The notes beneath the pieces were generated by a model. It ran no database searches, was not told where the DNA came from, and was given only the letters and a program-made list of their open reading frames with translations. A DNA stretch of 64,000 bases, taken from the IMG/VR virus record IMGVR_UViG_3300026488_000246, positions 83,463 to 147,462 of that record. One strand, 5' to 3'. Source of the DNA: a virus. Its lineage: Duplodnaviria > Heunggongvirae > Uroviricota > Caudoviricetes. This document shows positions 7,215 to 64,000 of this stretch, in pieces. The position numbers were made by a program, and so were the translations under genes. Position 1 is the stretch's first letter, and every line of letters starts with the position of its first letter.

Positions 7215-7267
7215 TAGTAACTAACCATATAATTGTATACAACTATATTACAAAATGAAACGCTTCC
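7215..7267 (+). promoter_or_regulatory. conserved intergenic cassette A (TAGTAACTAACCATATAATTGTATACAACTATATTACAAAATGAAACGCTTCC)
   Basis: Six copies in the window (7215, 7621, 8014, 41907, 43207, 55774). Each ends 10-20 nt upstream of a start codon. Confidence 0.55.
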
Positions 7268-28585: not shown

Positions 28586-28631
28586 TCCATGCGTGCACTC
28601 GTTCTATAGAATAGTTCTAAAACAATGATTG

Positions 28632-28934
28632 TTATTCTTCCTCTCTTATTTCACGACCAATCTTTTTAGCACAATCAAGTTTGTTAAAGAGTTCTGCAGC
28701 TTTTTCAGCTATGTCATCATAATGCCATTCTCTTGCCCTCAGATAAGCAGCGAAAAGAAGGGAACAATCATATTCACAGTTAGGATTCATAATAGGAAAT
28801 TTAAGCTCATTTGGCATAAGAAAAGCTTTTTCACCACATTTCTCAAAGAGTTTTTCTCTGTTAGATTTTCTTGATATAAACTTTCTAAGTTTTGCTGGTA
28901 TGATTGCTTCAAGAATACCTTTGAGTGTTGTCAT
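28632..28934 (-). CDS. hypothetical protein
   Basis: RBS GAGGAG. Confidence 0.55.
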   Translation of the reverse strand: MTTLKGILEAIIPAKLRKFISRKSNREKLFEKCGEKAFLMPNELKFPIMNPNCEYDCSLLFAAYLRAREWHYDDIAEKAAELFNKLDCAKKIGREIREEE

Positions 28935-28982
28935 CTGGTTATCTCCTCATAGTATTATTGGTTAGCTCTATCATAAGTTCAT

Positions 28983-29513
28983 TTAAGTTTCAAACTCTGT
29001 TAAACCAAATAGATAAGCATCAGTTACTCTATTCATCCAACCAAAGTAGAATTTTCTAAGAATTCTACGCTTTTGCACCAATCTTGTGTAGTAAAGTGTA
29101 GCTTGATTGTTATAAGCTTCATAAACTAAATCTCTATTTGAATTCTCTAAAGATTCTAATGTTTTCTGTCCAATAAGACCATCAACTACAACATCAAAAC
29201 CTGATCTTCTTAGAGCCTTTTGTAGAAACTTACCAGCTCTTGATATGCCTGTATTAACACAATAATTGAAATGTAGGAATGCTAATCTTTGACTTAAAGC
29301 TTCAATCTTATCACATTTTCCTCTTAACCAATAATCTTTCCAGTAGATCTCTTTAGCTTGCTCAATAGTAAGATTTTTGATATCAAGATCTGGATATTGC
29401 CTTTTGCTTATACCATACTTTGTTTCACCACCAGGATCATCTGGATCATTAACATATCCACCTTCCCATTTCAGTATAAACATAAAAGCTTTTTCAAATG
29501 CTAAGCTGTACAT
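28983..29513 (-). CDS. endolysin, glycoside hydrolase family 108 (lysozyme-like, with peptidoglycan-binding domain)
   Basis: Signature WEGGYVNDPDDPGGETKYGI. Confidence 0.7.
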   Translation of the reverse strand: MYSLAFEKAFMFILKWEGGYVNDPDDPGGETKYGISKRQYPDLDIKNLTIEQAKEIYWKDYWLRGKCDKIEALSQRLAFLHFNYCVNTGISRAGKFLQKALRRSGFDVVVDGLIGQKTLESLENSNRDLVYEAYNNQATLYYTRLVQKRRILRKFYFGWMNRVTDAYLFGLTEFET

Positions 29514-29623
29514 CGTAGCCAATCTCCATTAAACAAATCTGGTTTCTGAATGTTGTTCCATTTATATACTATTGAAACCTGAATGTTTTATTTTGTTTGA
29601 AAAGAAAATGAAGGAGGTGCAAC

Positions 29624-30049
29624 ATGAGACTAATAGACTACAGAAAGGTTATGACTTACCTGCTATTCAATAATAACCCAAAATTGGAGGCAAAACTTCC
29701 ACGTATATTAAAGAATCTTAACAAGTTTGCTGTTTCTGTAAGACTTGGTGACAAAAAATCTGATCGATATAAGCTAAATGTGTATCTTACGCAACATAAA
29801 CATCAACCAAGAGTTAAGGTGATCTATAGAAACATCAATGTTTGTTCCGTTTGGTATGACAGTGGTGTTAAGTATGTTGGAAATTTTGAATCGTTACCAA
29901 AGAAACTTCGATCATATCTGGTTTGCTTTCTAACTTATTGTTGGAATGAATTCATTAAGAGAGTAAATAATTCACCAGAAACAGTTTATGACTTGCTAAT
30001 TGCAACAATGGAAAACTTTAGAAAACGAGGTTGCAAACAAATCTGTTGA
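29624..30049 (+). CDS. hypothetical protein
   Basis: RBS AGGAGGTG. Confidence 0.55.
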   Translation: MRLIDYRKVMTYLLFNNNPKLEAKLPRILKNLNKFAVSVRLGDKKSDRYKLNVYLTQHKHQPRVKVIYRNINVCSVWYDSGVKYVGNFESLPKKLRSYLVCFLTYCWNEFIKRVNNSPETVYDLLIATMENFRKRGCKQIC

Positions 30050-30087
30050 AAAATGAAAACATTCCATTCAAAGGGAGGGTACTGTCA

Positions 30088-30444
30088 ATGAAACGGATAA
30101 CAGTCCTTATTTCTTTATTTTTCGCAATCACAAGCCATGCTTTCACAATGCAAGATTATGCTAAAATGGCTAGAAACCTCGTTAGACACGACCTTAACAT
30201 CTGTATTGAAAACGAAACTGCTGCTATGTGTGTATGTTATTTCTTATCAAACTGGTATTGTGATACATCAGAATATGATCGTTGTAGAAATGTTTATGCT
30301 ACGTTGTTAATGAGAATCTGCGAAGACAGAAATGATGGTAATTGCTCTGCTGTATATGGCCAAACAGAAAGAATATGCGAGCAAGAAGTTCAAAGAAAGC
30401 TTCTAAGAATCATGTTGAATGATCGAAATAACAAGGATTTTTGA
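30088..30444 (+). CDS. secreted Cys-rich protein
   Basis: RBS AGGGAGGG. Signal-peptide-like ITVLISLFFAITSHA. Nine Cys residues. Confidence 0.5.
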   Translation: MKRITVLISLFFAITSHAFTMQDYAKMARNLVRHDLNICIENETAAMCVCYFLSNWYCDTSEYDRCRNVYATLLMRICEDRNDGNCSAVYGQTERICEQEVQRKLLRIMLNDRNNKDF

Positions 30445-30469
30445 ATCTACGTGGACGAGAGAGAGATAT

Positions 30470-30506
30470 GGCTCCAGGACCACTATTAGATCCTGGAGCC
30501 TTTTTA
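30470..30506. terminator. bidirectional terminator
   Basis: GGCTCCAGGA ... TCCTGGAGCC, then TTTTT. Confidence 0.7.
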
Positions 30507-30523
30507 TCAACATCTTTTTTTTG

Positions 30524-30982
30524 CTATGTATGCAATCTTAAAGCTTTAATTAGTTTCTTAATAGCATCTTCTGTAATGTAATCTTTCTTAGAAGCTTCTA
30601 CAGACTCTTTGAGGTGTTTCTTTTCAATTCCTTCTGTATCCATCTGTCTCAATACTTTCTGAAGAATCTTAAGATTATCAAGAGCTAATGCTATGTAATC
30701 AAGAGTTACAGACCAAGCATTAAACACCTTTTCTTCAGGTGACTTTCCAGGCATTCTTCTCCATACACGGCCAACATAAGTTTTAGCCATGTCTTTCATC
30801 ATACCAAATGCAAATCCTTCACGATCCTTCTTAAGATTCTGTTTTAATTCTTTAAAGAAAGCATAGAAATCTTCAAATTTCTTGATAGCATACTTTCTTG
30901 CAAATTTAGTCATAGACCCATCTGACTTGACCATACATAGAGTAAGAAATGCTTTCAATCTTTGGTATTCCTTTTGAGTCAT
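30524..30982 (-). CDS. hypothetical protein
   Basis: RBS GAGGA. Confidence 0.6.
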   Translation of the reverse strand: MTQKEYQRLKAFLTLCMVKSDGSMTKFARKYAIKKFEDFYAFFKELKQNLKKDREGFAFGMMKDMAKTYVGRVWRRMPGKSPEEKVFNAWSVTLDYIALALDNLKILQKVLRQMDTEGIEKKHLKESVEASKKDYITEDAIKKLIKALRLHT

Positions 30983-31028
30983 AGTTAGTTATCCTCATTT
31001 TATTTTTCTAACGTTATCATAAGCTGTT

Positions 31029-32357
31029 CTATTCACAATAAATCTCTTTGAATGCTTGTTGCCATCTATCAGGTTTTGCAAGCTTTAAATCAATAGCTGC
31101 TTCAAAGGTTCTGAAATCAATTTCTAAAGATGGACATTTCTTTTGCACATCTTTGAGGAATGAAAGTACTTCAAGTTTTACGTTTCTTTCAACATTAGGA
31201 GCTACATAATCTATAAGCTTTTCAATGATTTTCACAATCTTTTCTGATGTAAAGTCTATCCTAACTGGATAGAATCTTGAAAGTAAAGCTTTTGGAATAT
31301 CTTTCTTTTGCTTATTTGTAATGAGGATTACTTTAGAAGTAAACACAAATCTTTCAGGTACTAACCAACTAGAAGATCCTTGTGTTGATGCAAACTGAGC
31401 TTGTGGGAATGTAATGATCCTTTTCTTATAAGAATCTGCAGCTGCTTTAAGAATGTTAACAACATCTTCATCTTTAAGTATTGTATCAAAATCATCAAAG
31501 ACAATAACATATCCAGAATTGTACTTATACAAGATATGTATAACGTCCCTTAAAGTCATTGTAGCACCTTTGAAAGTTACATGCTTAACCTTATTGAAAT
31601 ATAGAGTCCTTCTAACTACATAAGATTTTCCTGTCCCAGGTCTTCCATAAACTAATACACCATTAAGATGATCTGATGTTGTTAAAGTTTCAATAGCATC
31701 AATAAGATCTGCATATTCTTCTAAAGCTGGTTTATGCTTTGATTGTCCTTTGAAAATTTCTTTGTCAATTTGAGATTCTACAACTTGTGCTTTCTTTTCG
31801 GCTAACCATAAAGCAAATGTTTTCCAATAGAAAACAAGTATAACCATAAGAGGAATCAAATAAGCTGTAAAGATTGTAATCACTTGACCTTTTGGAGTTT
31901 GCATAAATTCAATTATCTTCAATGCTAATCTGTCAAGAAAACCTTGTTTCTCATCATCAGATGGATTATCAAATTGAAGATTTGGTAGATCTGCAGATTC
32001 TTTTAGAATCCTTTTCTTAATTTTAGGAAGCACAGCAGCATAAAGTAGAATCAGTTTCGCAAATTCATCAGTTGTAGCGTGTTTCTTTGGTTTGGTAACT
32101 ACAACTGATTTGTTTCTTTTAAGAGTCTTCTTGTTTAACCATTCAGCTCCTACAAGCTTAACTTCTTTACCTTCTACATAGACATACAGTCTTCCATATT
32201 TGTTACCATCTACTTCAATCATAAAAGTATCAAAGGAATATGATCTTTTCTTGACAACAAGCTCTCTCTTACCAAGATATTTAATCCTTACTGTTGAGTT
32301 TGGAATCTTAATCCAACCTTTGGATTGTTTAAGTTTTGAATAAAGATTTTTGCTCAT
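31029..32357 (-). CDS. membrane-anchored P-loop ATPase (AAA-like)
   Basis: Walker A VLVYGRPGTGKSY. Walker B VIVFDDFD. TM helix VITIFTAYLIPLMVILVFYW. Confidence 0.55.
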   Translation of the reverse strand: MSKNLYSKLKQSKGWIKIPNSTVRIKYLGKRELVVKKRSYSFDTFMIEVDGNKYGRLYVYVEGKEVKLVGAEWLNKKTLKRNKSVVVTKPKKHATTDEFAKLILLYAAVLPKIKKRILKESADLPNLQFDNPSDDEKQGFLDRLALKIIEFMQTPKGQVITIFTAYLIPLMVILVFYWKTFALWLAEKKAQVVESQIDKEIFKGQSKHKPALEEYADLIDAIETLTTSDHLNGVLVYGRPGTGKSYVVRRTLYFNKVKHVTFKGATMTLRDVIHILYKYNSGYVIVFDDFDTILKDEDVVNILKAAADSYKKRIITFPQAQFASTQGSSSWLVPERFVFTSKVILITNKQKKDIPKALLSRFYPVRIDFTSEKIVKIIEKLIDYVAPNVERNVKLEVLSFLKDVQKKCPSLEIDFRTFEAAIDLKLAKPDRWQQAFKEIYCE

Positions 32358-32364
32358 TATTGCA

Positions 32365-32886
32365 TTAATCCTCCTCGTTTTCAAGAGATAATGTCAAATC
32401 TTTTACTTTAGGAACTCGTTTTGGTTCTTCAACCATTTCTTTCTTAAGTTTAGCTATCTTTTCAACAACTTTTGTTTGAGCAGCAACAGTTGTTATCTTT
32501 TCAACAGATCTTGCTCCTATGTAACCTGTAAGACCATATTTGATTAGCTCCCATACGTGATCTGGAAGATTCAAGATTGGTACATGCAATCCAAATGCTT
32601 GTCCATATGGTACAAGAATATAGTTGTTAGCTATAATGAATACAAAAACAAGCATAGTTATTGGTCTCCAGTTTCTTTGCAACCAACTATGACCTGTTGC
32701 TTCTGATACAATGATATCTGCTTGGCTTTTCAATAGCTGTTGCTCAAGTTTAGCTACATTTTGCATATACTCTCTTTGAATTTCTAATGAAAGTTTTTGT
32801 TTTAAAGCTTTATCTTGTACATGTTTGTCAATGATATCTAGAATTTTTGATCCAAGTGCCATCAATCCTGGAACAATGTTGACCAT
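32365..32886 (-). CDS. membrane protein, possible holin-like
   Basis: TM segment ITMLVFVFIIANNYILVPY. Coiled-coil N-terminus. Lies in the lysis neighbourhood. Confidence 0.3.
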   Translation of the reverse strand: MVNIVPGLMALGSKILDIIDKHVQDKALKQKLSLEIQREYMQNVAKLEQQLLKSQADIIVSEATGHSWLQRNWRPITMLVFVFIIANNYILVPYGQAFGLHVPILNLPDHVWELIKYGLTGYIGARSVEKITTVAAQTKVVEKIAKLKKEMVEEPKRVPKVKDLTLSLENEED

Positions 32887-32889
32887 ACT

Positions 32890-33395
32890 TAATATCCTCT
32901 TGCTCTAAGGTTCAATAACAGTTCACTAACAAATAGAGGTCAATCTATTAGCAATGTCTAATCTAATGAACACTGTGCTTGGAGCATATGCAAAATTCAA
33001 TTGTTTCTAATCACCATAAAAACTATGCATAAACTGAATAATCATTGTTGAATCATATCAGTATCAAAAATGGTAACCGTTTCATTTTAACGTGGTTTAC
33101 CTGTATATATCCTATAGTATTCATGAAAAATGAAAATAAAAGAATCAAGAAATCAGTAATGCAATAACCATTCCAAGCAACAATGAATTTACATCAACAT
33201 TCAATTATATTGAAGAAACAACATTAACCAAGCTTAAGAATTGTATCATCATTGAAAGTTACATTGATTATGATAATTCAAGTTTAGTTTTTAGAATATG
33301 CATAAAGAAATGAAAACAACAAAGGATATAACATCAGTATCAACAATGGTTGCTAGCTTATATGAAGTTGTACTACATTGAATCAACAATGAAGT
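32890..33395. repeat. 505-bp AT-rich noncoding region with iteron-like ATCAACAATG repeats
   Basis: CAACAATG occurs 3 times directly and once inverted (TCATTGTTG). CATATCAGTATCAAAAATGG at 33052 repeats as CATCAGTATCAACAATGG at 33326. Confidence 0.4.
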
Positions 33396-35282
33396 TTATG
33401 CAGCTATTGGTCGAGAATATGCATTGATTGGTTGAATCAGACTTCGGATTACATCAACTATGAAAGCAACGGAATCTATCTGCATGAACCACAGTTTGTA
33501 AAGAAGCTTATATCTATGCTGTTTCGACATCGGTTTGATTCCTTTTGGAAGATGCATAAGCTTGAGTATGTAGTCTCTTGACTTCCAGCATGAAACAGCA
33601 TTAGCAAAAATGAAGCTTCTTACATTATCAACAACATCTTTAATGTTGTGCTCTTCATAGTATGCTTGGAGTTTATCTGAAAGTACGTCTAAAGCTTCTT
33701 TAACGAGATCTTTGTCTCCTTCTCTAAGTGTGTATATGAAAAGCATTTTGAAACATTCGTCCTTAACCACTCTACCTTCAATCTTCTCATGTACTTTACC
33801 TTCATTGAGAATTTTACCAAGAGCATATATGGTGAAATGCTTTTGAGTTGCATTCCATGCTAATGATTGTCTTAACATAGAGTAAACTTCAAAAGGCATT
33901 CTTATGGTAAGCCTTTTATAGGTTGTGTAAGTTGTCATATCTGTGTAGAGCTCTTTTTCAACAGAAATTAAACCAGCTTTCTCAAATTCTTCAAGATGCA
34001 TGCTTATTGCTCTATGAGACAAAGGAGTTTTACCACCTTTGAATGCATTAAGGAAGCTATGAAATTCTTTAATTGTGTTAAACTTGAAAACAAATTCTTG
34101 TGATTCAGCATCATAGGTGCATACGTCATTTCTCAATGTTAAAGCAAGAAGAGTAACAGCAATGATTTGTTTAACTTCATAGCTTGTGGGTCTCTTTTCT
34201 GAGAGCCTTTTAGGCTTGACAATAACTATATCAGAACTATCAGAATCTTCAACAAACTGAGAAAGATCAAGCTTATAGTTGAAGTGATTCTTTAGGTAAA
34301 GTTTAAGAGTTGGAATGCCATAATAAGTTGTCCTGTTGACAATATACTTGAGAGGATCAAACCTTTTCTTCCTTTCCTCGTCGTCCTGAGGTATAATAGA
34401 CTCAAGAGCTTGTCTGACTTTTTCAACGTCCTCTTTGAAATGTCTATAGAGAACACCTGTTATGATCATTGAAAGGTTCTGTCTATGACCTTTAACCCAG
34501 AACCTTTCAGCTATAAACTTACATAATTCAAAAGCTCTGAGTCTATTATTTAAACAATGAATCTCATACTCACGCTTTATATGGAAGAAGCATGAGTTAT
34601 GAGACTTTTCATCAACGAGCTCTTCTACGAGAGCCCTAAGTAGCTCAATGGGGTCGAGGTCAAGCTCTTTTGCAAGTTGAAAGATGTCAACAGATTTTTC
34701 AGCATGCTTGACCCTTACATAGAATTTCCTTCCGATGCCAAGCCTTGGCATCCTGAAAGGATGGTTAATATGAGTTGAAGTTGCAGGGTCAGCATTAAGG
34801 ACCCTTGCAAGCTCTTTATGAATTTTTGATAAGAACAAATCATGAACCTTGGCCCATTGAGCTACGGGCTCAAGGTAACTAGCTATTGTTGCCTCTATTG
34901 AGGAGCTTTGATTTTCGATTAAGTATTTCAGCCCCTCGTAGCTGACACCTTCTTTTAAGTTTACGAACACATGAAGGTGACCATTGTTTGGATTTTTATC
35001 AATGGTCATGTAGGGTTGGCTTTGGCTCCTTTGGGAGTCTATATCGAATCCTAATGTCTCCCAAAGTAGGATGTTGTTGGTTGATCTTACGTAGAGGTTG
35101 GGGCATGCTACTGCTTCCCAGCCTCTACCAATTTCCCAACCCTGTCTTATTGGAAGTATCTTACCGGATTTGATATATCCGGATATTTTTCCAGTTGCGT
35201 AGACGGTTTTTGGTTTTTTGGGCTTGGGTTCTTTTTGGACCTGAGCCCTCACTTTTTGTCCGATTACGTTCTTCTTTTCCAT
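33396..35282 (-). CDS. putative primase-polymerase (AEP superfamily) replication protein
   Basis: AEP motif I LGFDID. Motif II NGHLHVFVN. RBS AGGAGGG. Confidence 0.45.
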   Translation of the reverse strand: MEKKNVIGQKVRAQVQKEPKPKKPKTVYATGKISGYIKSGKILPIRQGWEIGRGWEAVACPNLYVRSTNNILLWETLGFDIDSQRSQSQPYMTIDKNPNNGHLHVFVNLKEGVSYEGLKYLIENQSSSIEATIASYLEPVAQWAKVHDLFLSKIHKELARVLNADPATSTHINHPFRMPRLGIGRKFYVRVKHAEKSVDIFQLAKELDLDPIELLRALVEELVDEKSHNSCFFHIKREYEIHCLNNRLRAFELCKFIAERFWVKGHRQNLSMIITGVLYRHFKEDVEKVRQALESIIPQDDEERKKRFDPLKYIVNRTTYYGIPTLKLYLKNHFNYKLDLSQFVEDSDSSDIVIVKPKRLSEKRPTSYEVKQIIAVTLLALTLRNDVCTYDAESQEFVFKFNTIKEFHSFLNAFKGGKTPLSHRAISMHLEEFEKAGLISVEKELYTDMTTYTTYKRLTIRMPFEVYSMLRQSLAWNATQKHFTIYALGKILNEGKVHEKIEGRVVKDECFKMLFIYTLREGDKDLVKEALDVLSDKLQAYYEEHNIKDVVDNVRSFIFANAVSCWKSRDYILKLMHLPKGIKPMSKQHRYKLLYKLWFMQIDSVAFIVDVIRSLIQPINAYSRPIAA

Positions 35283-35601
35283 AGCACTTCCCTCCTATTT
35301 CAGATTTTTTTCAAGTTTGAATAATAGCTCAAACGTTTTAACAGATGATTATCAAGTTTCAAAAGAGTATTTTAAGAAAACAAACCTTACAAAAAAAAAA
35401 ACGTAACCGCCTACGCAAACTGGTGATACTTCCAACAAGGTTGGGAACCAACAACATCCTGGGAGCCAACCCTAATGAACCTTCATGTGTTCATCAATAA
35501 GGTGCCAGCATCTTGAGGCAACAATAGCATGTGGGTAAACATTTCCCACATATTTTTGTGTTCTAATAGTGGGGTGGCTAAGAAAGTACCACCCCCAAAA
35601 A

Positions 35602-36168
35602 CTATGACTTGAAATCTCCAACTTTCTTTGCACCTAGTGAAAGCAATAAATCTTCAAACAAATCAGGAGACATTTTCCAACAAGGAACGTCTTCTGATAT
35701 CTTACCAATAAACTTCAGGCATAAACATTCCTTTTCACTACAGAATAAGTAGCCATTTCTTTTAAGTTTGAATGGAATTACAAATGATACGATAGCTTTC
35801 CAATCATAAGGAATTCCTAGGTAAGCACATGTATGTTGAAAATCAAGAGCTTTCTGATATTGAGTTCTGTTAACTTCTAATTCATAAACTGTAAATGGTG
35901 TTCCTGGTGTATGGTTATGAAGACTTGAATAGATAACACGAGTTTTCCATAAAGGTTCACCTTTTGGTGTCCAAGCTTCAATAATAGATTGTGGTTTATA
36001 TAAGCTTTCAACTGTTCCATCAAAAATTTCTGGATTGATGAAGAATGCATGACTTCTTTTACTTCTTGTCCAAAATTTGATTAAGGTAGAAGTCCAAGAA
36101 AGTCCAGACTCCAAACCAAAGTAAAGTTTTCTTCTCATAGTTTTTGTTCCCAGAAATGGTTCTACCAT
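35602..36168 (-). CDS. hypothetical protein
   Basis: ORF; start TTG or ATG. Confidence 0.5.
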   Translation of the reverse strand: MVEPFLGTKTMRRKLYFGLESGLSWTSTLIKFWTRSKRSHAFFINPEIFDGTVESLYKPQSIIEAWTPKGEPLWKTRVIYSSLHNHTPGTPFTVYELEVNRTQYQKALDFQHTCAYLGIPYDWKAIVSFVIPFKLKRNGYLFCSEKECLCLKFIGKISEDVPCWKMSPDLFEDLLLSLGAKKVGDFKS

Positions 36169-36566
36169 ATGCAATCACTAATCAATGATATAGTATAGTT
36201 TCCTGATGAATCTTCTTGTACTATTTTTAGATACTTAACAGGGATCCATGTGTCTAATGTATAAGTATAGTCACCATTACTAGGAATAGTAACTTTTAGA
36301 GGTTTAGGTGTATCATGTATGGAATCACCACTATCAGATCTATAGTAGATGCAATAAGGATACCAATTTTCACCATCAACAGAAACAAGCAATGATAATT
36401 CACCTATTGATGAGCTCAATCCTTCTGCATGAATTTGCATACCAATCATTGATAATTTTGGTAGTTTAGCAATTACTTCTGTATTATCGTTTTTGATGAT
36501 TTCTATACTTTCGACAAAAGTGGACTGCCAAGCACTCCCTATATCTGGTAGCTCAAGATGTATCAT
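36162..36566 (-). CDS. hypothetical protein (start uncertain, may extend to 36614)
   Basis: Internal ATG preceded by AAGGAGG. Confidence 0.45.
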   Translation of the reverse strand: MIHLELPDIGSAWQSTFVESIEIIKNDNTEVIAKLPKLSMIGMQIHAEGLSSSIGELSLLVSVDGENWYPYCIYYRSDSGDSIHDTPKPLKVTIPSNGDYTYTLDTWIPVKYLKIVQEDSSGNYTISLISDCIW

Positions 36567-38345: not shown

Positions 38346-38756
38346 ATGTCAACAAAAACTCCTTTCTTAACAACAGATAACTTAGAAACAACCTTAAAAG
38401 ATATACTACAAGTTCCATACATCATCAATATACTTATATCAGGAGCACCTGGTATTGGTAAATCTGAAATCACATATCAAGTAGCAAAAGACTTAGATCT
38501 AAAAGTTTTTGAAGTTAGACTTTACGAAGAAGGAGAAACTGCTGTAGGTTTACCAAAGCTTAACGAAGAAACTACTGAATTTAGCAAACCATGGTGGTTT
38601 AAAGACTTGGAACAAGGTGATTATGATATACTCTTTCTTGATGACTTTCACCTTGTTCCAGCAACATTACAAAGCTATTTATATAGATTCTTAACTGATA
38701 GAACTTTGCATAACTATAAGCTTAACAAGAATATCTTGCTCCATATTGTAACATAA
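38346..38756 (+). pseudogene. truncated paralog of the MoxR-like AAA ATPase (62513..63583), ending at the IS607 insertion
   Basis: Collinear with the intact paralog (ISGAPGIGKSEITYQV...LFLDDFHLVP...SYLYRFLT) up to residue 136. Stops 30 nt before tnpA. Confidence 0.55.
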
Positions 38757-38787
38757 TATGAAAAATAGAACTAAATTTGGAGGACTC

Positions 38788-39450
38788 ATGTATACACTAG
38801 AAGAATTTTCAAAACTTACAGGATTGAGCAAAGATACATTAAGACAATACGACAAAATTCTTCAACCTTATCGTACTCCAGGAGGTCATAGAAGATATAC
38901 AGATGAGCATCTTGCAAAACTTTATCAGTTAAACATGATTAACAAAGATCATAAGATTCAAGCCATAGTTTATGCTAGAGTTTCCACAAAATCTCAACTA
39001 AAAGATCTCAAAAGACAAGTTGAAGCTTTACTTTCATTTGCTTCAAGTAAAGGCATCATAGTTGACGAAATAATACAAGATATTGGTAGCAGCATAAACT
39101 TTTCCAGACCAGGTCTTGAAAAACTTATAAGACTTCTTTTAATGAGGAAACCTGAGTATCTGATAGTTGCAACAAGAGACAGACTAACAAGAATTGGGTT
39201 TGAAATCTTTGAGCAAATATGTAAAACAACGGGTACAAAATTGCTGATCCTGTACGATGATTTGCAAGCTGACGATTATGATCCAGTTAAGAAAACTGTT
39301 GAAGAGTTAGTTCATATTGTTCATCTGTATGCAATGAAACTTTATGGACAAAGAAGTTACAAAAAGATCAAGCAACTTGAAAATGAGGTGCTTAAGAATG
39401 TATCAGGTTTTGACGATTCGAATCAAAGGGAAGAAGAAACGAATTCTTAA
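38788..39450 (+). CDS. tnpA: IS607-type serine recombinase/resolvase (MerR-like HTH N-terminus)
   Basis: RBS GGAGGA. Catalytic region YARVSTKSQ. HTH region EEFSKLTGLSKDTLRQY. Confidence 0.7.
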   Translation: MYTLEEFSKLTGLSKDTLRQYDKILQPYRTPGGHRRYTDEHLAKLYQLNMINKDHKIQAIVYARVSTKSQLKDLKRQVEALLSFASSKGIIVDEIIQDIGSSINFSRPGLEKLIRLLLMRKPEYLIVATRDRLTRIGFEIFEQICKTTGTKLLILYDDLQADDYDPVKKTVEELVHIVHLYAMKLYGQRSYKKIKQLENEVLKNVSGFDDSNQREEETNS

Positions 39451-40720
39451 AGAATTCATGGAAACAGTGTTCTCACTTAGAATCAAACTGTTCAGATTCT
39501 TATCACGATTGGCAGATGAGTCTCATCTGCCAATCTTCTTCAATACTTACAAACTAGAGAAATTCTTTGCTAGAAACCCAAAGGTTGATAAGCTTGATTA
39601 CGACTTGTATTCTTTTATAGAAAGACATTATTACACAGAATGGTGGAAGTTGCTTTACGAATTGCGTCAATTACCACAAATGGTTGTTTATGGTTTAGTT
39701 AGACAATGGGTGCAAGCTTTCAAATCTTGCATTACTAAGAGAAAACAAGGTTTAAAAGCTTCTTTACCTGGAGTACGCAAACCAAATAGCATAGCAATTG
39801 ACATTGATGGTTTACTACTAGAAGTTGATAATTCCTTGGTAACGCTAAAACTTTCAAGATGTTTAAAGTTACATTGGAAGATACCAGATAACATAGAAAA
39901 CGTTACATCGTGTCAAATTGTGTATTTCAGATACATTGATGAATTAGAATTAAGAATTCGTTATCAGATCCAACCAGAATCAGCAAATGTTAGCTTACAA
40001 AACTGGCTTTCAATCGACTTAGGAGTAAATAACTTAGTAAGTGCTATTTCGAATACTGGACCAAGCTTTATCATATCATCAGGATGGATTACATCTCTTT
40101 TGAACTGGGCATACGATAAGATTTCAATATCTCAATCTTTCGGATTTGAGAAAATGAGAAAACGAATCTATGCATACTTAAAACGACGCATACATACTAA
40201 TCTCCATCAACTTACATCAAAGATAATTGAATATTGTTTACAATACTCAATTGGTGTGATATTCATAGGTCAGAATGTGATTGATTCTATAAGAAACTCC
40301 AAACAAAACAAATCTATCTCAAAACAGTTAAGATGGATATTAGGCAAACTACCATTTGGAAAGTTTGTACAGATGCTTAAAGCTAAAGCTGAAAAATTTG
40401 GCATACAAGTACAACTTGTTAATGAATCTTATACATCCAAAGCATCTGCATTAGATGACGAACCTATTAAACAAGAAACATATTCGATCAAAAGAATTCA
40501 AAGAGGATTAGTTAAGTCAGATAAGAATGAAGTCTGGAATGCTGATCTTAATGCTTGTTTAAACATTGCTAAGAAAGCAAAGGTACTTTCAAGTACCGAA
40601 GTGAAACAAAACAGACATTTTTGGTTAAGAAAACTTTCTAACACATTGAAATTCACATTTGGAAAACTCTTGAAATACAGCTGGTGTAACCAACCATATT
40701 GGTTGGTAGCCAGTAGTTGA
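39398..40720 (+). CDS. tnpB: TnpB (RuvC-like RNA-guided nuclease family, IS200/IS605/IS607 OrfB)
   Basis: N-terminus MYQVLTIRIKG. RuvC-III motif NADLNACLNIAKKA. Zn-finger region present. Confidence 0.7.
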   Translation: MYQVLTIRIKGKKKRILKEFMETVFSLRIKLFRFLSRLADESHLPIFFNTYKLEKFFARNPKVDKLDYDLYSFIERHYYTEWWKLLYELRQLPQMVVYGLVRQWVQAFKSCITKRKQGLKASLPGVRKPNSIAIDIDGLLLEVDNSLVTLKLSRCLKLHWKIPDNIENVTSCQIVYFRYIDELELRIRYQIQPESANVSLQNWLSIDLGVNNLVSAISNTGPSFIISSGWITSLLNWAYDKISISQSFGFEKMRKRIYAYLKRRIHTNLHQLTSKIIEYCLQYSIGVIFIGQNVIDSIRNSKQNKSISKQLRWILGKLPFGKFVQMLKAKAEKFGIQVQLVNESYTSKASALDDEPIKQETYSIKRIQRGLVKSDKNEVWNADLNACLNIAKKAKVLSSTEVKQNRHFWLRKLSNTLKFTFGKLLKYSWCNQPYWLVASS

Positions 40721-40862
40721 CCCAGACCCTAGAATTTCTCATTAGTAAACCTATGGTTGGTGGGAGTCAATTGACACATCAGCATCAATTTTAAATAAGC
40801 AATATCTAGATGCAGTTAGCATCATACTACATAATGCACACAAGATTAATGTAGATATTCTT

Positions 40863-41168
40863 TTGGTTGATAGTGATATTGTATCAGTTTTTGAATCAGT
40901 TGATAAGAATTTCGAGATGCTTAAACTTAAACAATTTCTTAAACATAGAAAAGGTTTTGGTGGAACATGCATATCACCTGTGATTGGATGGATTGAATCT
41001 CGTAAGAAGCATTATGATGCATGGTTTCACATTTCAGCTGACTTAGAGATTTACGACTTAAATTCAGCTAAACATCCAAGAAACACCAAATCAGTTTTTT
41101 GGATTGTAGAATTAACACCTTACACACGAGATAAAGAAGTTCCATTTGGAAAGAAATTGTATTATTAG
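40863..41168 (+). CDS. hypothetical protein (TTG start, uncertain)
   Basis: ORF. The same frame is open upstream to 40749. Confidence 0.35.
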   Translation: MVDSDIVSVFESVDKNFEMLKLKQFLKHRKGFGGTCISPVIGWIESRKKHYDAWFHISADLEIYDLNSAKHPRNTKSVFWIVELTPYTRDKEVPFGKKLYY

Positions 41169-41186: not shown

Positions 41187-41909
41187 ATGAAACTCTATCA
41201 ATTCAATGATTGGTATCAACAAGCTGTGGATTATTGGTCAGATCCTAACCATATCGATTGTCCCGATAAATGTGTGGAGAAACTAAAACAACTGAAATCT
41301 GAAGTAGAATCTTATTTCAGCAACACGGGTGAATCCTATGTATGGTTTAAAAGAATCGTATCTACTATGCTTTCATTAAGGCTAACCAAGTTTCACATGG
41401 AAGTCTATAAAATTGTGGGGGAGGATGAAAATGGTCAACTTAAGCTCGAAAAACCAGATGATTTACCTGATATATCTACAAATGCTACAAACTTCAAGGA
41501 ACTTTTAGGAGCATTCATTGTAGACTTACCAGAAATTGAAACTTTGTTTAGCACATACACAACTACACAATCATCCGATGGTTTGGAAGACGATGATGAT
41601 AGTAAATGTATTCAATGTGGTGAATCTGGAACAGACGCAAGTGGTAATGTTGTACAACAATGTTTAGATACGTCTAAAGTTGACGAATTTATCGAAAAGG
41701 TCAAAGGGTTACCTAAAGAAGATCTAAATAGAATCTTTGCTTTCATTGATAGCCTAGATGAAACTGATAGATCTTTGTATGTGATGTTTAAGTCTAATGA
41801 GCTATATATGAAAACAGATCAAATAACCATGAGAGAATTAGCTATTGAAGCTGGTTTAGATGATGTAGTTTCTGTTTACAAATGGGTCATTCCAGGTTTC
41901 AATTCCTAG
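41187..41909 (+). CDS. hypothetical acidic protein
   Basis: RBS GGGGAGG. Confidence 0.65.
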   Translation: MKLYQFNDWYQQAVDYWSDPNHIDCPDKCVEKLKQLKSEVESYFSNTGESYVWFKRIVSTMLSLRLTKFHMEVYKIVGEDENGQLKLEKPDDLPDISTNATNFKELLGAFIVDLPEIETLFSTYTTTQSSDGLEDDDDSKCIQCGESGTDASGNVVQQCLDTSKVDEFIEKVKGLPKEDLNRIFAFIDSLDETDRSLYVMFKSNELYMKTDQITMRELAIEAGLDDVVSVYKWVIPGFNS

Positions 41910-41960
41910 TTACCTAACCTTATAATTGTATACAACTATATTACAAAATGAAACGCTTCC
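41907..41960 (+). promoter_or_regulatory. intergenic cassette A
   Basis: TAGTTACCTAACCTTATAATTGTATACAACTATATTACAAAATGAAACGCTTCC. Confidence 0.55.
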
Positions 41961-55773: not shown

Positions 55774-55827
55774 TAGTAACCTAACCATATAATTGTATAC
55801 AACTACATTACAAAATGAAACGCTTCC
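55774..55827 (+). promoter_or_regulatory. intergenic cassette A
   Basis: TAGTAACCTAACCATATAATTGTATACAACTACATTACAAAATGAAACGCTTCC. Confidence 0.55.
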
Positions 55828-55842
55828 ACCAATGGAGGGAAT

Positions 55843-62114: not shown

Positions 62115-62510
62115 ATGATGTACATTGATAGTTTCTCATGTAGTACGTACGTTAGGACACTACCGATTAAAGCAAGTAAGGATGAAATTGTAAGGATGTT
62201 GCAACAAGAAATTATGAAGATGAGAAAGAATGATCCAGAAATTCCGGATATTGAGACTTGTGTTTTAGATGAGATTGTAGACTTTCTCTACGAATCATCT
62301 ATAATCCTTTTTGTTGAAATAGTATGGAAATACAGCGAAAACGGATCGTATGAGGAAAGGTATATGGATGCAAAGGGCAAATCTGGTGTAAGATATGTTA
62401 AGGAATACATTAACGTTGAGTATCCATCTCCTCTTTTCCTGGTGCTTTCAGCACTTAGGTCAATTTTAGATAAACTAGAATGTTTCATCACACTAAAAAC
62501 GGAGGTGTAA
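62115..62510 (+). CDS. hypothetical protein, paralog of 61346..61729
   Basis: See 61346. Confidence 0.6.
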   Translation: MMYIDSFSCSTYVRTLPIKASKDEIVRMLQQEIMKMRKNDPEIPDIETCVLDEIVDFLYESSIILFVEIVWKYSENGSYEERYMDAKGKSGVRYVKEYINVEYPSPLFLVLSALRSILDKLECFITLKTEV

Positions 62511-62512
62511 AC

Positions 62513-63583
62513 ATGCAGCTAATGGAAATCACAAACCTAGCTAAGTTTCTTGAAAGTGTATTACCTATGAAGTCCACAGAAAACCTACTTATCTCAGGTG
62601 CTCCTGGAATTGGAAAGTCTGAAATCACCTATCAAGTTTGTGAAAAGCTTGGGTTGAATCTACTTGAAGTCAGGCTTTATGAAGAGGGAGAGACAGCAGC
62701 TGGTCTTCCTAAACTACACTCAGACATCACAGAATTTACTAAGACATGGTGGTTCAAAGAGCTTGAGACAGGAAAGTATGATGTGTTATTCCTTGATGAT
62801 TTTCATCTTGTTCCACCTATGATTCAATCTTATCTTTACAGGTTCCTTACATCAAGAGTTTTCCACAACTATACACTAGACAAACCAATCAAGATAATAG
62901 TAGCTGGTAACTTCAATCTACAAACAGCATCTGCTACAGAAGTACAATCTCCTATTATGTCTAGATTTTCAATGGCGGTTGAATACAAACCAACAGTTGA
63001 TACATTCATTGAATATATGACACAAAAACCTGATGTTTTCCATGTATCAATCATCGCATTCCTAAAAGCATTTCCAGATTATCTTTATCATACAGATCCA
63101 CCTTACACAGAAATGTATCACAATCCTCGTTCATGGGAAAGGTTATCAAGATACATCATGGAAAATGAACAGATGCATAAGTTTGCACCTGCTATTGTGG
63201 GATATGATGCAGGAGGTAAGTTTGTCGAATATTGGAAGATTCTTGCAAGACCTCTACGTGATCTCCTAAATGTTGATATTCAAACTATCAAAGAAAATTC
63301 TCCAAGAGATGTTTATGCACATCTAGCCGCTATTGCATTACATTTTGCAGATGCAGTAAACAAAGGTGATAAAGAATCTGTTAAAGCCATTGTAGATTAT
63401 GTATCACAGCAAGTAGATCCTGATTCAGAAGAAGGTAACTTTTATAACTTGTTTGTTTACCAAATCTTCAAGTCAAGGAAACTCTTTGGAAAACTACATA
63501 TTGTAGCTATGAGATCTACACCTGATGTTAGAGAGTACCTTAAAAAGTATACGGAAGAAATGGTTTCTATTTCAAACCTTTAA
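62513..63583 (+). CDS. MoxR-like AAA ATPase
   Basis: Walker A ISGAPGIGKSE. Walker B VLFLDDFHLV. RBS ACGGAGGTG. Confidence 0.6.
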   Translation: MQLMEITNLAKFLESVLPMKSTENLLISGAPGIGKSEITYQVCEKLGLNLLEVRLYEEGETAAGLPKLHSDITEFTKTWWFKELETGKYDVLFLDDFHLVPPMIQSYLYRFLTSRVFHNYTLDKPIKIIVAGNFNLQTASATEVQSPIMSRFSMAVEYKPTVDTFIEYMTQKPDVFHVSIIAFLKAFPDYLYHTDPPYTEMYHNPRSWERLSRYIMENEQMHKFAPAIVGYDAGGKFVEYWKILARPLRDLLNVDIQTIKENSPRDVYAHLAAIALHFADAVNKGDKESVKAIVDYVSQQVDPDSEEGNFYNLFVYQIFKSRKLFGKLHIVAMRSTPDVREYLKKYTEEMVSISNL

Positions 63584-63612: not shown

Positions 63613-63635
63613 CTTCTTTCTTGGGGGAATGATTA

Positions 63636-64000
63636 TGGATTTAAAGACAGTTAAAACCTTAGCTTATAGGATTTTAAGGACATCAGGTTTATGGGTGGTT
63701 CCTGTCCAATTCAAAGATGATATTACAAGTTGGACAGATGGTAAGATTATTACAATTGCAGATAAACACAGAAAAGATGATGCTGAATTTCTTTATACAT
63801 TCATACATGAATTTCTTCATATGATTCTTCTTCATCCAAGAAGAATGCAAACAATTAGACTTGACAATCGATACAGAATCATTTACAATATAGCTGCTGA
63901 TGCAGTAATAGATTCCATTGTTAACAGTTTACCAAAGGATCTAGTACCTAAATGGATAGATAAGATTCAGCAACATGCCACAATGGATTCAAAGGTAGCT
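63636..64000 (+). CDS. HExxH metallopeptidase-like protein (3'-truncated at window edge)
   Basis: FIHEFLHMILLH. Partnered with the MoxR-like ATPase, as in MoxR/VWA-metallopeptidase pairs. Confidence 0.45.

Follow-up and report, generated by a model that had tools for sequence, protein, structure and literature searches.

A probable autonomous IS607-family insertion sequence whose ends coincide with a two-gene loss in a large virulent-type phage

Introduction

How does an insertion sequence (IS) come to sit against a broken gene in a phage genome, and is the loss of the rest of that gene tied to the element? This question is raised by a 64,000-nucleotide stretch of phage DNA, called the window below (positions 83,463 to 147,462 of IMG/VR record IMGVR_UViG_3300026488_000246; all coordinates are those of the window unless a contig is named). 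The initial annotation, made from the sequence alone, had recognised an IS607-family element, encoding TnpA (a serine recombinase) and TnpB, beside a truncated ATPase paralog, an identification borne out by domain scores, by the TnpA nucleophile Ser66 and by the TnpB motif NADLNACLNIA. We compared this element with its other copies and its flanks with their intact paralogs. The results make it very probable that an autonomous IS607-family IS resides in a large virulent-type phage, its ends coinciding with a loss of about 1.57 kb in a duplicated gene cassette.

Extent and ends of the element

The same IS was found at four sites, in the window, in contigs L007, L008 and L010, in L006 and L009, and in L011, with 91-94% nucleotide identity to the window copy and unrelated flanks. 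The points where homology between these copies ends set its size at about 2.04 kb, with boundaries good to +/-3 nt. The initial annotation had placed the element at 38346-40745, an extent that the copies displace, and had advised aligning the paralog and related phage genomes to define the exact ends; alignment with the paralog and with related phage contigs indeed fixed them to about 3 nt. The parts of the element are as follows.

38732-40772, + strand: IS607-family insertion sequence, delimited by the homology ends of the independent copies L007/L008/L010, L011 and L006/L009
38732-38787, + strand: left end, non-coding, 56 nt, holding the tnpA ribosome-binding site GGAGGA and kept in three copies
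38788-39450, + strand: tnpA, 220-aa serine recombinase with an N-terminal MerR-type helix-turn-helix (NF033518, PDB 6dgc, Pfam)
39398-40720, + strand: tnpB, 440 aa, overlapping tnpA by 53 nt (Pfam, NF040570, homolog alignment, AlphaFold2 model)

At all three left junctions, homology between the window and the other copies begins at 38732 (TATCT...); at the right junctions it stops, in three of three, at 40769-40772 (...GGGAGTCA plus 1-3 nt), and the flanks beyond are unrelated on both sides. The left end is 80% identical between the window and L007. From these junctions the IS body is probably 38733-40769 (ATCT...GAGTCA), with AT on either side. The termini TATCT... and ...GGGAGTCA are unrelated to each other, a repeat search of the IS gave no inverted repeats at its ends, and beyond a possible 2-nt crossover no target-site duplication was seen in the flanks of three copies. 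The absence of inverted repeats and of target duplication, the occupation of several sites and the arrangement of tnpA with an overlapping tnpB in about 2 kb are all shared with the IS607 family (IS607 of H. pylori, IS1535, ISC1926). Judged by its sequence and its copies, the segment 38732-40772 thus qualifies as an autonomous IS607-family element.

GG is both the terminal and the target dinucleotide of most IS607 elements (PMC6188088; PMC13565253). In contrast, the window IS ends in ATCT...GAGTCA and its left flanks are AT-rich without GG. The left flanks read AAGAA, CACCT and TATTC before TATCT, and GAGTCA is followed by AT, CT or TT at the right end. The bases directly outside the ATCT...GTCA body are AT/AT in the window and TT/CT in L007, with CT in L011 and TT in L006 (one junction each), so that T occupies the second flanking position at six of six junctions and GG occurs at none. 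We hypothesize that an NT dinucleotide is the crossover site. IS607 elements characteristically carry short subterminal direct repeats to which TnpA binds. The hexamer TGTAAC lies close to both IS ends and was considered as such a TnpA-binding motif, but it was rejected as too frequent (60 sites across the window). Promoter and terminator scans stayed at background level. Within the 5' portion of tnpB, the window and L011 copies share a perfect 14-bp palindrome (39507-39535); being broken in L007 and L006, it probably has no functional role.

The arrangement at the locus does not depend on a single contig. An identical left junction was recovered in four assemblies from different samples or runs and from two assemblers or sources, which indicates that it is real and not private to one contig, and both junctions are present in L001 and in a 161,948-nt contig. 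These observations bear directly on the possibility of a metagenome assembly chimera joining the IS to unrelated phage flanks. In favour of such an artefact, the IS copies are repeats that occur together in the same samples, and the IS is where contigs L002-L004 and L011 break off; the recurrence of the junctions across assemblies leaves it next to no likelihood.

Two truncated genes flank the element

The sequences on either side of the IS belong to a cassette of which the window holds a second copy near its end.

38346-38732, + strand: 5' fragment of a second AAA+ (MoxR-like) ATPase gene, codons 1-129/130 (paralog alignment, Pfam)
40770-41168, + strand: 3' fragment of a VWA/DUF2201 gene, last ~130 codons with the whole VWA-like domain (tblastn, PF09967)
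62513-63583, + strand: intact paralogous AAA+ ATPase, 356 aa (Pfam; phrog_1297 ATPase, E = 1.7e-39)
63635-64000, + strand: 5' part of the intact paralogous DUF2201_N/VWA gene (405 aa whole), which runs past the window end

On the left, the open reading frame (ORF) 38346-38756 encodes 136 aa, all of which had been described as collinear with the intact ATPase. The alignment is indeed ungapped, residues 12-130 of the fragment matching residues 19-137 of the paralog with 66% identity (E = 6e-56), but homology ends at residue 130 (position 38732-38735), the last six codons and the TAA stop being supplied by the IS left end. The fragment retains Walker A (GAPGIGKS) and Walker B (LFLDDF) motifs, and both it and the intact ATPase score above the Pfam cut-offs for AAA and AAA_5. 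The intact protein, which would reach 367 aa from an alternative ATG at 62480, scores 24.7 bits for AAA_5 (cutoff 22) and 16.6 for bpMoxR, below the cutoff of 27; the label 'MoxR-like' is weakly supported by sequence and rests mainly on the pairing with a VWA gene. As the initial annotation had noted, the rest of the ATPase is not recognisable downstream of the IS: tblastn with the full ATPase found none of it there.

On the right, tblastn with the 405-aa VWA protein against the IS locus matched its residues 276-405 to 40767-41165 (47% identity, E = 5e-35), and the fragment alone scores 28.2 bits for PF09967 (DUF2201, cutoff 26.4). It has no start codon in its first 38 codons, the first in-frame start lying at 40863. 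This link had been missed because the intact partner starts at 63635 and runs off the window. Contig L005 extends the window by 5.6 kb and carries the intact ATPase followed by the 405-aa protein, which combines DUF2201_N (putative metallopeptidase, 30.6 bits, cutoff 23.2) with DUF2201 (VWA-like, 30.1 bits, cutoff 26.4). The ATPase and DUF2201 pair is also intact in another phage contig, L017, where the cassette is not syntenic with the IS locus and the VWA protein does not match the fragment.

Measured against the intact cassette, the gap at the IS amounts to about 1,566 nt and comprises ATPase codons ~130-356, the spacer and VWA codons 1-275. On these alignments, the IS fills a gap of about 1.57 kb across two genes of a duplicated cassette, which corrects the first reading of a simple insertion into a single gene. 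Both homology breakpoints lie within about 3 nt of the IS ends, which ties the loss to the IS, in whichever order the two events came.

The initial annotation had allowed for either a deletion or a naturally short paralog. Eight relatives of the ATPase fragment at E < 1e-30 (HMMER scan of 1.84 billion representatives) are 329-379 aa long, bar one partial sequence, and the VWA partner genes encode 405-492 aa; the short ATPase without an IS in relatives, which would have spoken against the insertion, was not among them. The naturally short paralog was rejected on the length of these relatives, the start-less VWA fragment and the stop codon borrowed from the IS, and it is the loss that stood, across two genes. 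For the same reasons we consider it very unlikely that the deletion came first, or that both short genes are natural, the IS having landed later at the junction without relation to the loss: beyond the full-length relatives and partners and the missing start codon, breakpoints within about 3 nt of the IS ends would require insertion at a single position out of the 162 kb or more that the genome measures. That sequence of events would account for why an IS-bearing but otherwise undamaged cassette was not encountered, and IS607 excision or integration alone is not known to remove flanking DNA.

Because the IS lies within coding sequence and in the same orientation, we also considered an IStron, that is, a group I intron fused to an IS whose splicing restores the gene; IS607-type IStrons are known (PMC10690162). 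Here the left end measures merely 56 nt, no group I intron or other Rfam model matched at E values up to 10, and the flanking exons would come from two different genes joined out of frame, which makes an IStron exceedingly improbable.

The transposase TnpA

The ATG of tnpA at 38788 is conserved between copies and preceded by GGAGGA. It follows directly after the ATPase-fragment stop, as first described, at a distance of 31 nt and not 30. A 230-aa product from the ATG at 38758 was rejected, as a stop codon comes straight after that ATG in copy L007. TnpA contains the Pfam domains MerR and Resolvase and reaches 165.3 bits with the NCBIfam IS607 transposase equivalog NF033518 (cutoff 110). It aligns with the solved catalytic domains of ISC1926, MJ0014, ISC1904 and IS1535, the best E value being 4.6e-28 (PDB 6dgc, ISC1926), and its structure matches include PDB 6dgc, 3lhk and 6dgb, with Ser66 aligned. 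This nucleophile lies within YARVSTKSQ, and the motif DRLTR occupies residues 131-135. TnpA matches 79 INPHARED phage records, with a top identity of 39% to a phage-borne homolog.

Between the window and the L007, L011 and L006 copies, tnpA shows 24-46 synonymous and 2-3 non-synonymous differences, which corresponds to a ratio of non-synonymous to synonymous divergence (dN/dS) of 0.013-0.02; the ratio for tnpB is 0.11-0.15 between copies, at a synonymous divergence (dS) of 0.2-0.5. Such low ratios at this divergence indicate that both genes were kept functional through substantial divergence, and both are under purifying selection. The insertion had been called recent, a claim that gains no support and meets no contradiction here: the copies differ by a dS of 0.2-0.5 and the databases searched hold no empty site.

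A TnpB with a rearranged active site

TnpB scores above the cut-offs of the Pfam families OrfB_IS605 and Cas12f1-like_TNB (PF01385, 36.3 bits, cutoff 30.5; PF07282, 41.2 bits, cutoff 26.3). Its AlphaFold2 model (pLDDT 81.8, pTM 0.78) retrieved AsCas12f (E = 2.4e-16), the mimivirus Fanzor2 9b0l (7e-14) and ISDra2 TnpB 8h1j (2e-12) in Foldseek searches, with E values of 1e-10 to 1e-12 against 8exa, 8h1j and 8iaz of the ISDra2 and ISFba1 TnpB systems. In an alignment of 72 homologs, D207 (RuvC-I, IDLG), E343 (NESYTSK) and D383 (RuvC-III, NADLN, within NADLNACLNIA at residues 381-391) are invariant. The canonical RuvC-II glutamate position is occupied by G291 (FIGQN), and glycine (IGxN) is found there nearly throughout the 72 homologs; E343 is placed six residues ahead of the first zinc-finger cysteine position. 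The C4 zinc finger itself is lacking: the CxxC...CxxC cysteines are absent from TnpB and from its 13 closest homologs, and the former zinc-finger stretch reads E-SYTSKA-SALD....

RuvC-II-rearranged TnpBs with glycine at the canonical position and an alternative glutamate have been described (PMC10691335; PMC10711439), and zinc-finger loss is known for some TnpB branches (PMC10691335). The RIIr-type TnpBs of Altae-Tran et al. 2023 (PMC10691335), the 'Ealt' TnpBs and pro-Fanzors, and Fanzor2 (PMC10711439) have in common with the window TnpB the glycine in place of the RuvC-II glutamate, the alternative glutamate, the NADxN form of RuvC-III and the association with a serine recombinase. The window TnpB differs in the loss of all four zinc-finger cysteines, and whereas the RuvC-I motif of pro-Fanzors and Fanzors is DPG, its own is DLG, for which reason a pro-Fanzor identity was rejected. 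By its aligned residues, TnpB belongs to a described clade whose RuvC-II site is rearranged, here combined with the loss of the zinc finger. Its closest TnpB relative from another element, P0003 at 30% identity, likewise forms part of a tnpA-tnpB unit, behind a MerR-resolvase gene on the phage-like contig L012 and beside a split RNA-polymerase gene. Two further members of the TnpB cluster, P0122 and P0123 (56 aa), proved to be unrelated sequences and were discarded.

A lack of catalytic residues in tnpA or tnpB had been named as evidence that would speak against the element. Ser66 of TnpA and D207, E343 and D383 of TnpB are all present, the RuvC-II site being of the rearranged type. With this triad intact, TnpB is not a nuclease-dead, TldR-like repressor, and by analogy with characterised TnpBs it would perform RNA-guided DNA cleavage dependent on a target-adjacent motif (TAM).

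Could the two genes form a domesticated module that no longer transposes and serves as a weapon or a regulator, for instance by cutting competing phages? The IS family was seen only in a handful of related phage contigs, far from the nearest other TnpB, both genes are under strong selection, and in L006 an intact tnpB stands beside a tnpA of which the 5' 60% is gone (102 aa left). Domestication nevertheless has little chance of being right: the element occupies four insertion sites with identical ends, the full tnpA is kept at a dN/dS of about 0.015, and the intact nuclease triad sets TnpB apart from the TldR-like repressors.

The 3' end and a putative guide RNA

Two further features were delineated at the right end, both by prediction.

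40560-40770, + strand: putative omega (right-end) RNA scaffold (predicted consensus fold, minimum free energy z-score)
40771-40792, + strand: predicted guide portion, the 3' flank of the right end (analogy with ISDra2 and ISXfa1)

Several hairpins are predicted in the 3'-terminal ~210 nt of the IS, with a minimum free energy z-score of -2.35. One of them, at 40679-40714, straddles the tnpB stop codon, and a predicted terminal stem GAC[T]CCC...GGGAGTC (GACTCCC/GGGAGTC) closes where the IS stops. In L007 and in P0124, the loop of the first hairpin differs by a 1-nt indel that shifts the reading frame of the TnpB tail but spares the stem, and synonymous divergence in the tail is about one third of that in the tnpB body in the L006 and L011 comparisons, although from small counts. 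The guide-RNA region had been expected at about 40600-40750; a conserved, RNA-like 3' end does overlie the end of tnpB, and it extends to about 40770, the RNA itself being predicted. ISDra2 and ISXfa1 provide the model for a guide positioned just 3' of the right end (PMC10711439), and the window element resembles the ISDra2, ISXfa1 and ISFba1 systems of TnpB and omega RNA in fold and in its predicted structured 3' end, which lies over the tnpB stop and abuts the IS end. By this analogy a guide RNA would arise from the IS 3' end and run into the flank. The predicted guide overlies the DxSxS motif region of the VWA fragment. A second match to it was sought in the window at up to 3 mismatches; none was found, and retargeting to the intact paralog was rejected accordingly.

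RAGATH-18-derived reRNAs belong to IS607 TnpBs (PMC11061315). In contrast to these, the window 3' end has no match in sequence or structure to them, nor to any Rfam model. A covariance model built from the 3' 133 nt retrieved known copies only and had no hit at the loci of distant homologs (L012, L015 and L016). By eye, distant homologs also finish in a hairpin and a GGAG(N)T(T)CA-like terminus, an impression not counted as a test. On L012, four to five GC-rich hairpins (GGGGC...GCCCC) lie at 2400-2560, directly past the right end of the distant IS.

Other copies and the host phage

The exact TnpB sequence and 92%-identical variants of it are present on other contigs. In L007, L008 and L010 the IS has a LigD_N-like gene on one side and a 385-aa gene on the other, with genes for a T4-type portal and a prohead protease nearby. 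The 385-aa gene is on the minus strand and takes its TGA stop from the terminal TCA of the IS right end (L007 7372-7377), so that this copy also cuts into, or abuts, coding sequence. The L006/L009 site is on a contig of 175,752 nt from a related phage, which shares 40-72% protein identity with the window. Gene order at the IS right end differs between L006 (5700-11800) and the window (28600-36300), a block of a 172-aa and a 152-aa gene standing directly at the IS in L006, ahead of the holin-like and 622-aa genes; this difference could be an IS-associated rearrangement. In L011 the IS follows a gene resembling family-4 uracil-DNA glycosylase (UDG), whose ORF (L011 1-352) ends about 44 nt before the IS and apparently misses the C-terminal motif region; it may be a second truncated gene beside an IS copy. 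Contigs L003 and L004 match the window exactly in their flanks, but their IS alleles (compared over 38767-39626) are mosaic, with L007-type patches, a pattern due either to gene conversion among the IS copies or to chimeras formed in short-read assembly.

The host is a large (at least 162 kb), uncultured phage of virulent type. INPHARED contains no near-identical DNA, and the phage topoisomerase II is at most 34% identical to that of any known phage in that collection; on these two grounds the phage is novel. Searches of IMG/VR returned no relatives of the flanking proteins among its contigs and no match to the right-end 22-mer. About 2.6-5.6 kb past the window end, L005 (8670-11617) carries split beta'-like multisubunit RNA polymerase genes with Rpb1 domains, and the nearest IS relative, on L012, likewise adjoins an Rpb1_2 gene. 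An intergenic repeat of about 54 nt occurs three times on the + strand of the window (7215-7267, 41907-41960 and ~55775-55830); its core, TATAATTGTATACAACTATATTACAAAATG, recurs with 0-1 mismatches, and chance alone would be expected to give no such copies. At least two repeat copies stand just upstream of + strand genes (41970, 55843), and the repeat may be a phage promoter or regulatory element.

Discussion

Several results weigh against an autonomous IS607-family element whose arrival is tied to the loss. The GG termini and target typical of IS607 members are missing from it, and the flanking dinucleotides, equal in the window (AT/AT), are unequal in L007 (TT/CT). No common TAM could be read from the three left flanks. 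TnpB passes NF040570 narrowly, with 101.2 bits for a cutoff of 100 (~1 bit). At the 3' end, the window copy lacks one base of the terminal stem (1-nt deletion), which is thereby weakened, the fold shows 0 compensatory pairs across three near-identical copies, and Rfam returned nothing relevant at gathering thresholds or at E up to 10, RAGATH-18 and the group I intron included; the covariance-model search suggested in the initial annotation for the guide scaffold thus gave no Rfam match. Finally, the check for an empty site, proposed there as well, found none among the protein collections covered by word-index searches with both fragments and by the HMMER scan with the ATPase fragment, and in the L006 phage the whole region is missing. 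A cassette complete but for an inserted IS was not found either, so that insertion and deletion may have come in either order.

Knowledge of the family suggests how the element would move. TnpA would excise the IS as a double-stranded circle and insert it through a crossover of 2 bp, for which the site here seems to be an NT dinucleotide (AT/AT in the window) and not GG. The 3' ~210 nt, together with ~16-20 nt of flank, would be transcribed as guide RNA, and TnpB with this guide would cut IS-free copies of the site, after which recombination with an IS-bearing genome would copy the IS back. Restorative homing of this kind would operate during co-infection. The two-gene loss would most simply have arisen by recombination between two IS copies in the same orientation, one in each gene, or by TnpA joining one IS end to a nearby site of the same molecule in cis. 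Either route would leave precise IS ends, which matches what is observed.

A broader proposal, doubtful as it stands, is that these copies represent a phage-restricted IS607 lineage which combines an NT/AT crossover suited to AT-rich DNA, a compact TnpB with alternative glutamate and without zinc finger, and homing during co-infection; the mosaic alleles, and the gene losses or rearrangements beside several copies, would then be footprints of TnpB-triggered recombination and not noise of the assemblies.

Phage-borne IS607 units have already been annotated in Campylobacter phage CP21, in Clostridium phage c-st (ISCbt4) and in Nodularia and Microcystis phages. Current understanding is left unchanged by the present element, IS607 and TnpB in phages, rearranged TnpB sites and TnpB homing having all been described. 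It is mildly unusual in its non-GG termini and in the combination of an alternative glutamate with zinc-finger loss. With ends known to about 3 nt, four sites and several alleles, its sequences provide a delimited and apparently active IS607 element, and its TnpB is material for surveys of compact RNA-guided nucleases. The non-GG termini suggest that the IS607 target rule is looser than the textbook GG. Lying exactly in a two-gene deletion of a virulent-type phage, the element offers an example of transposons pruning redundant phage cassettes.

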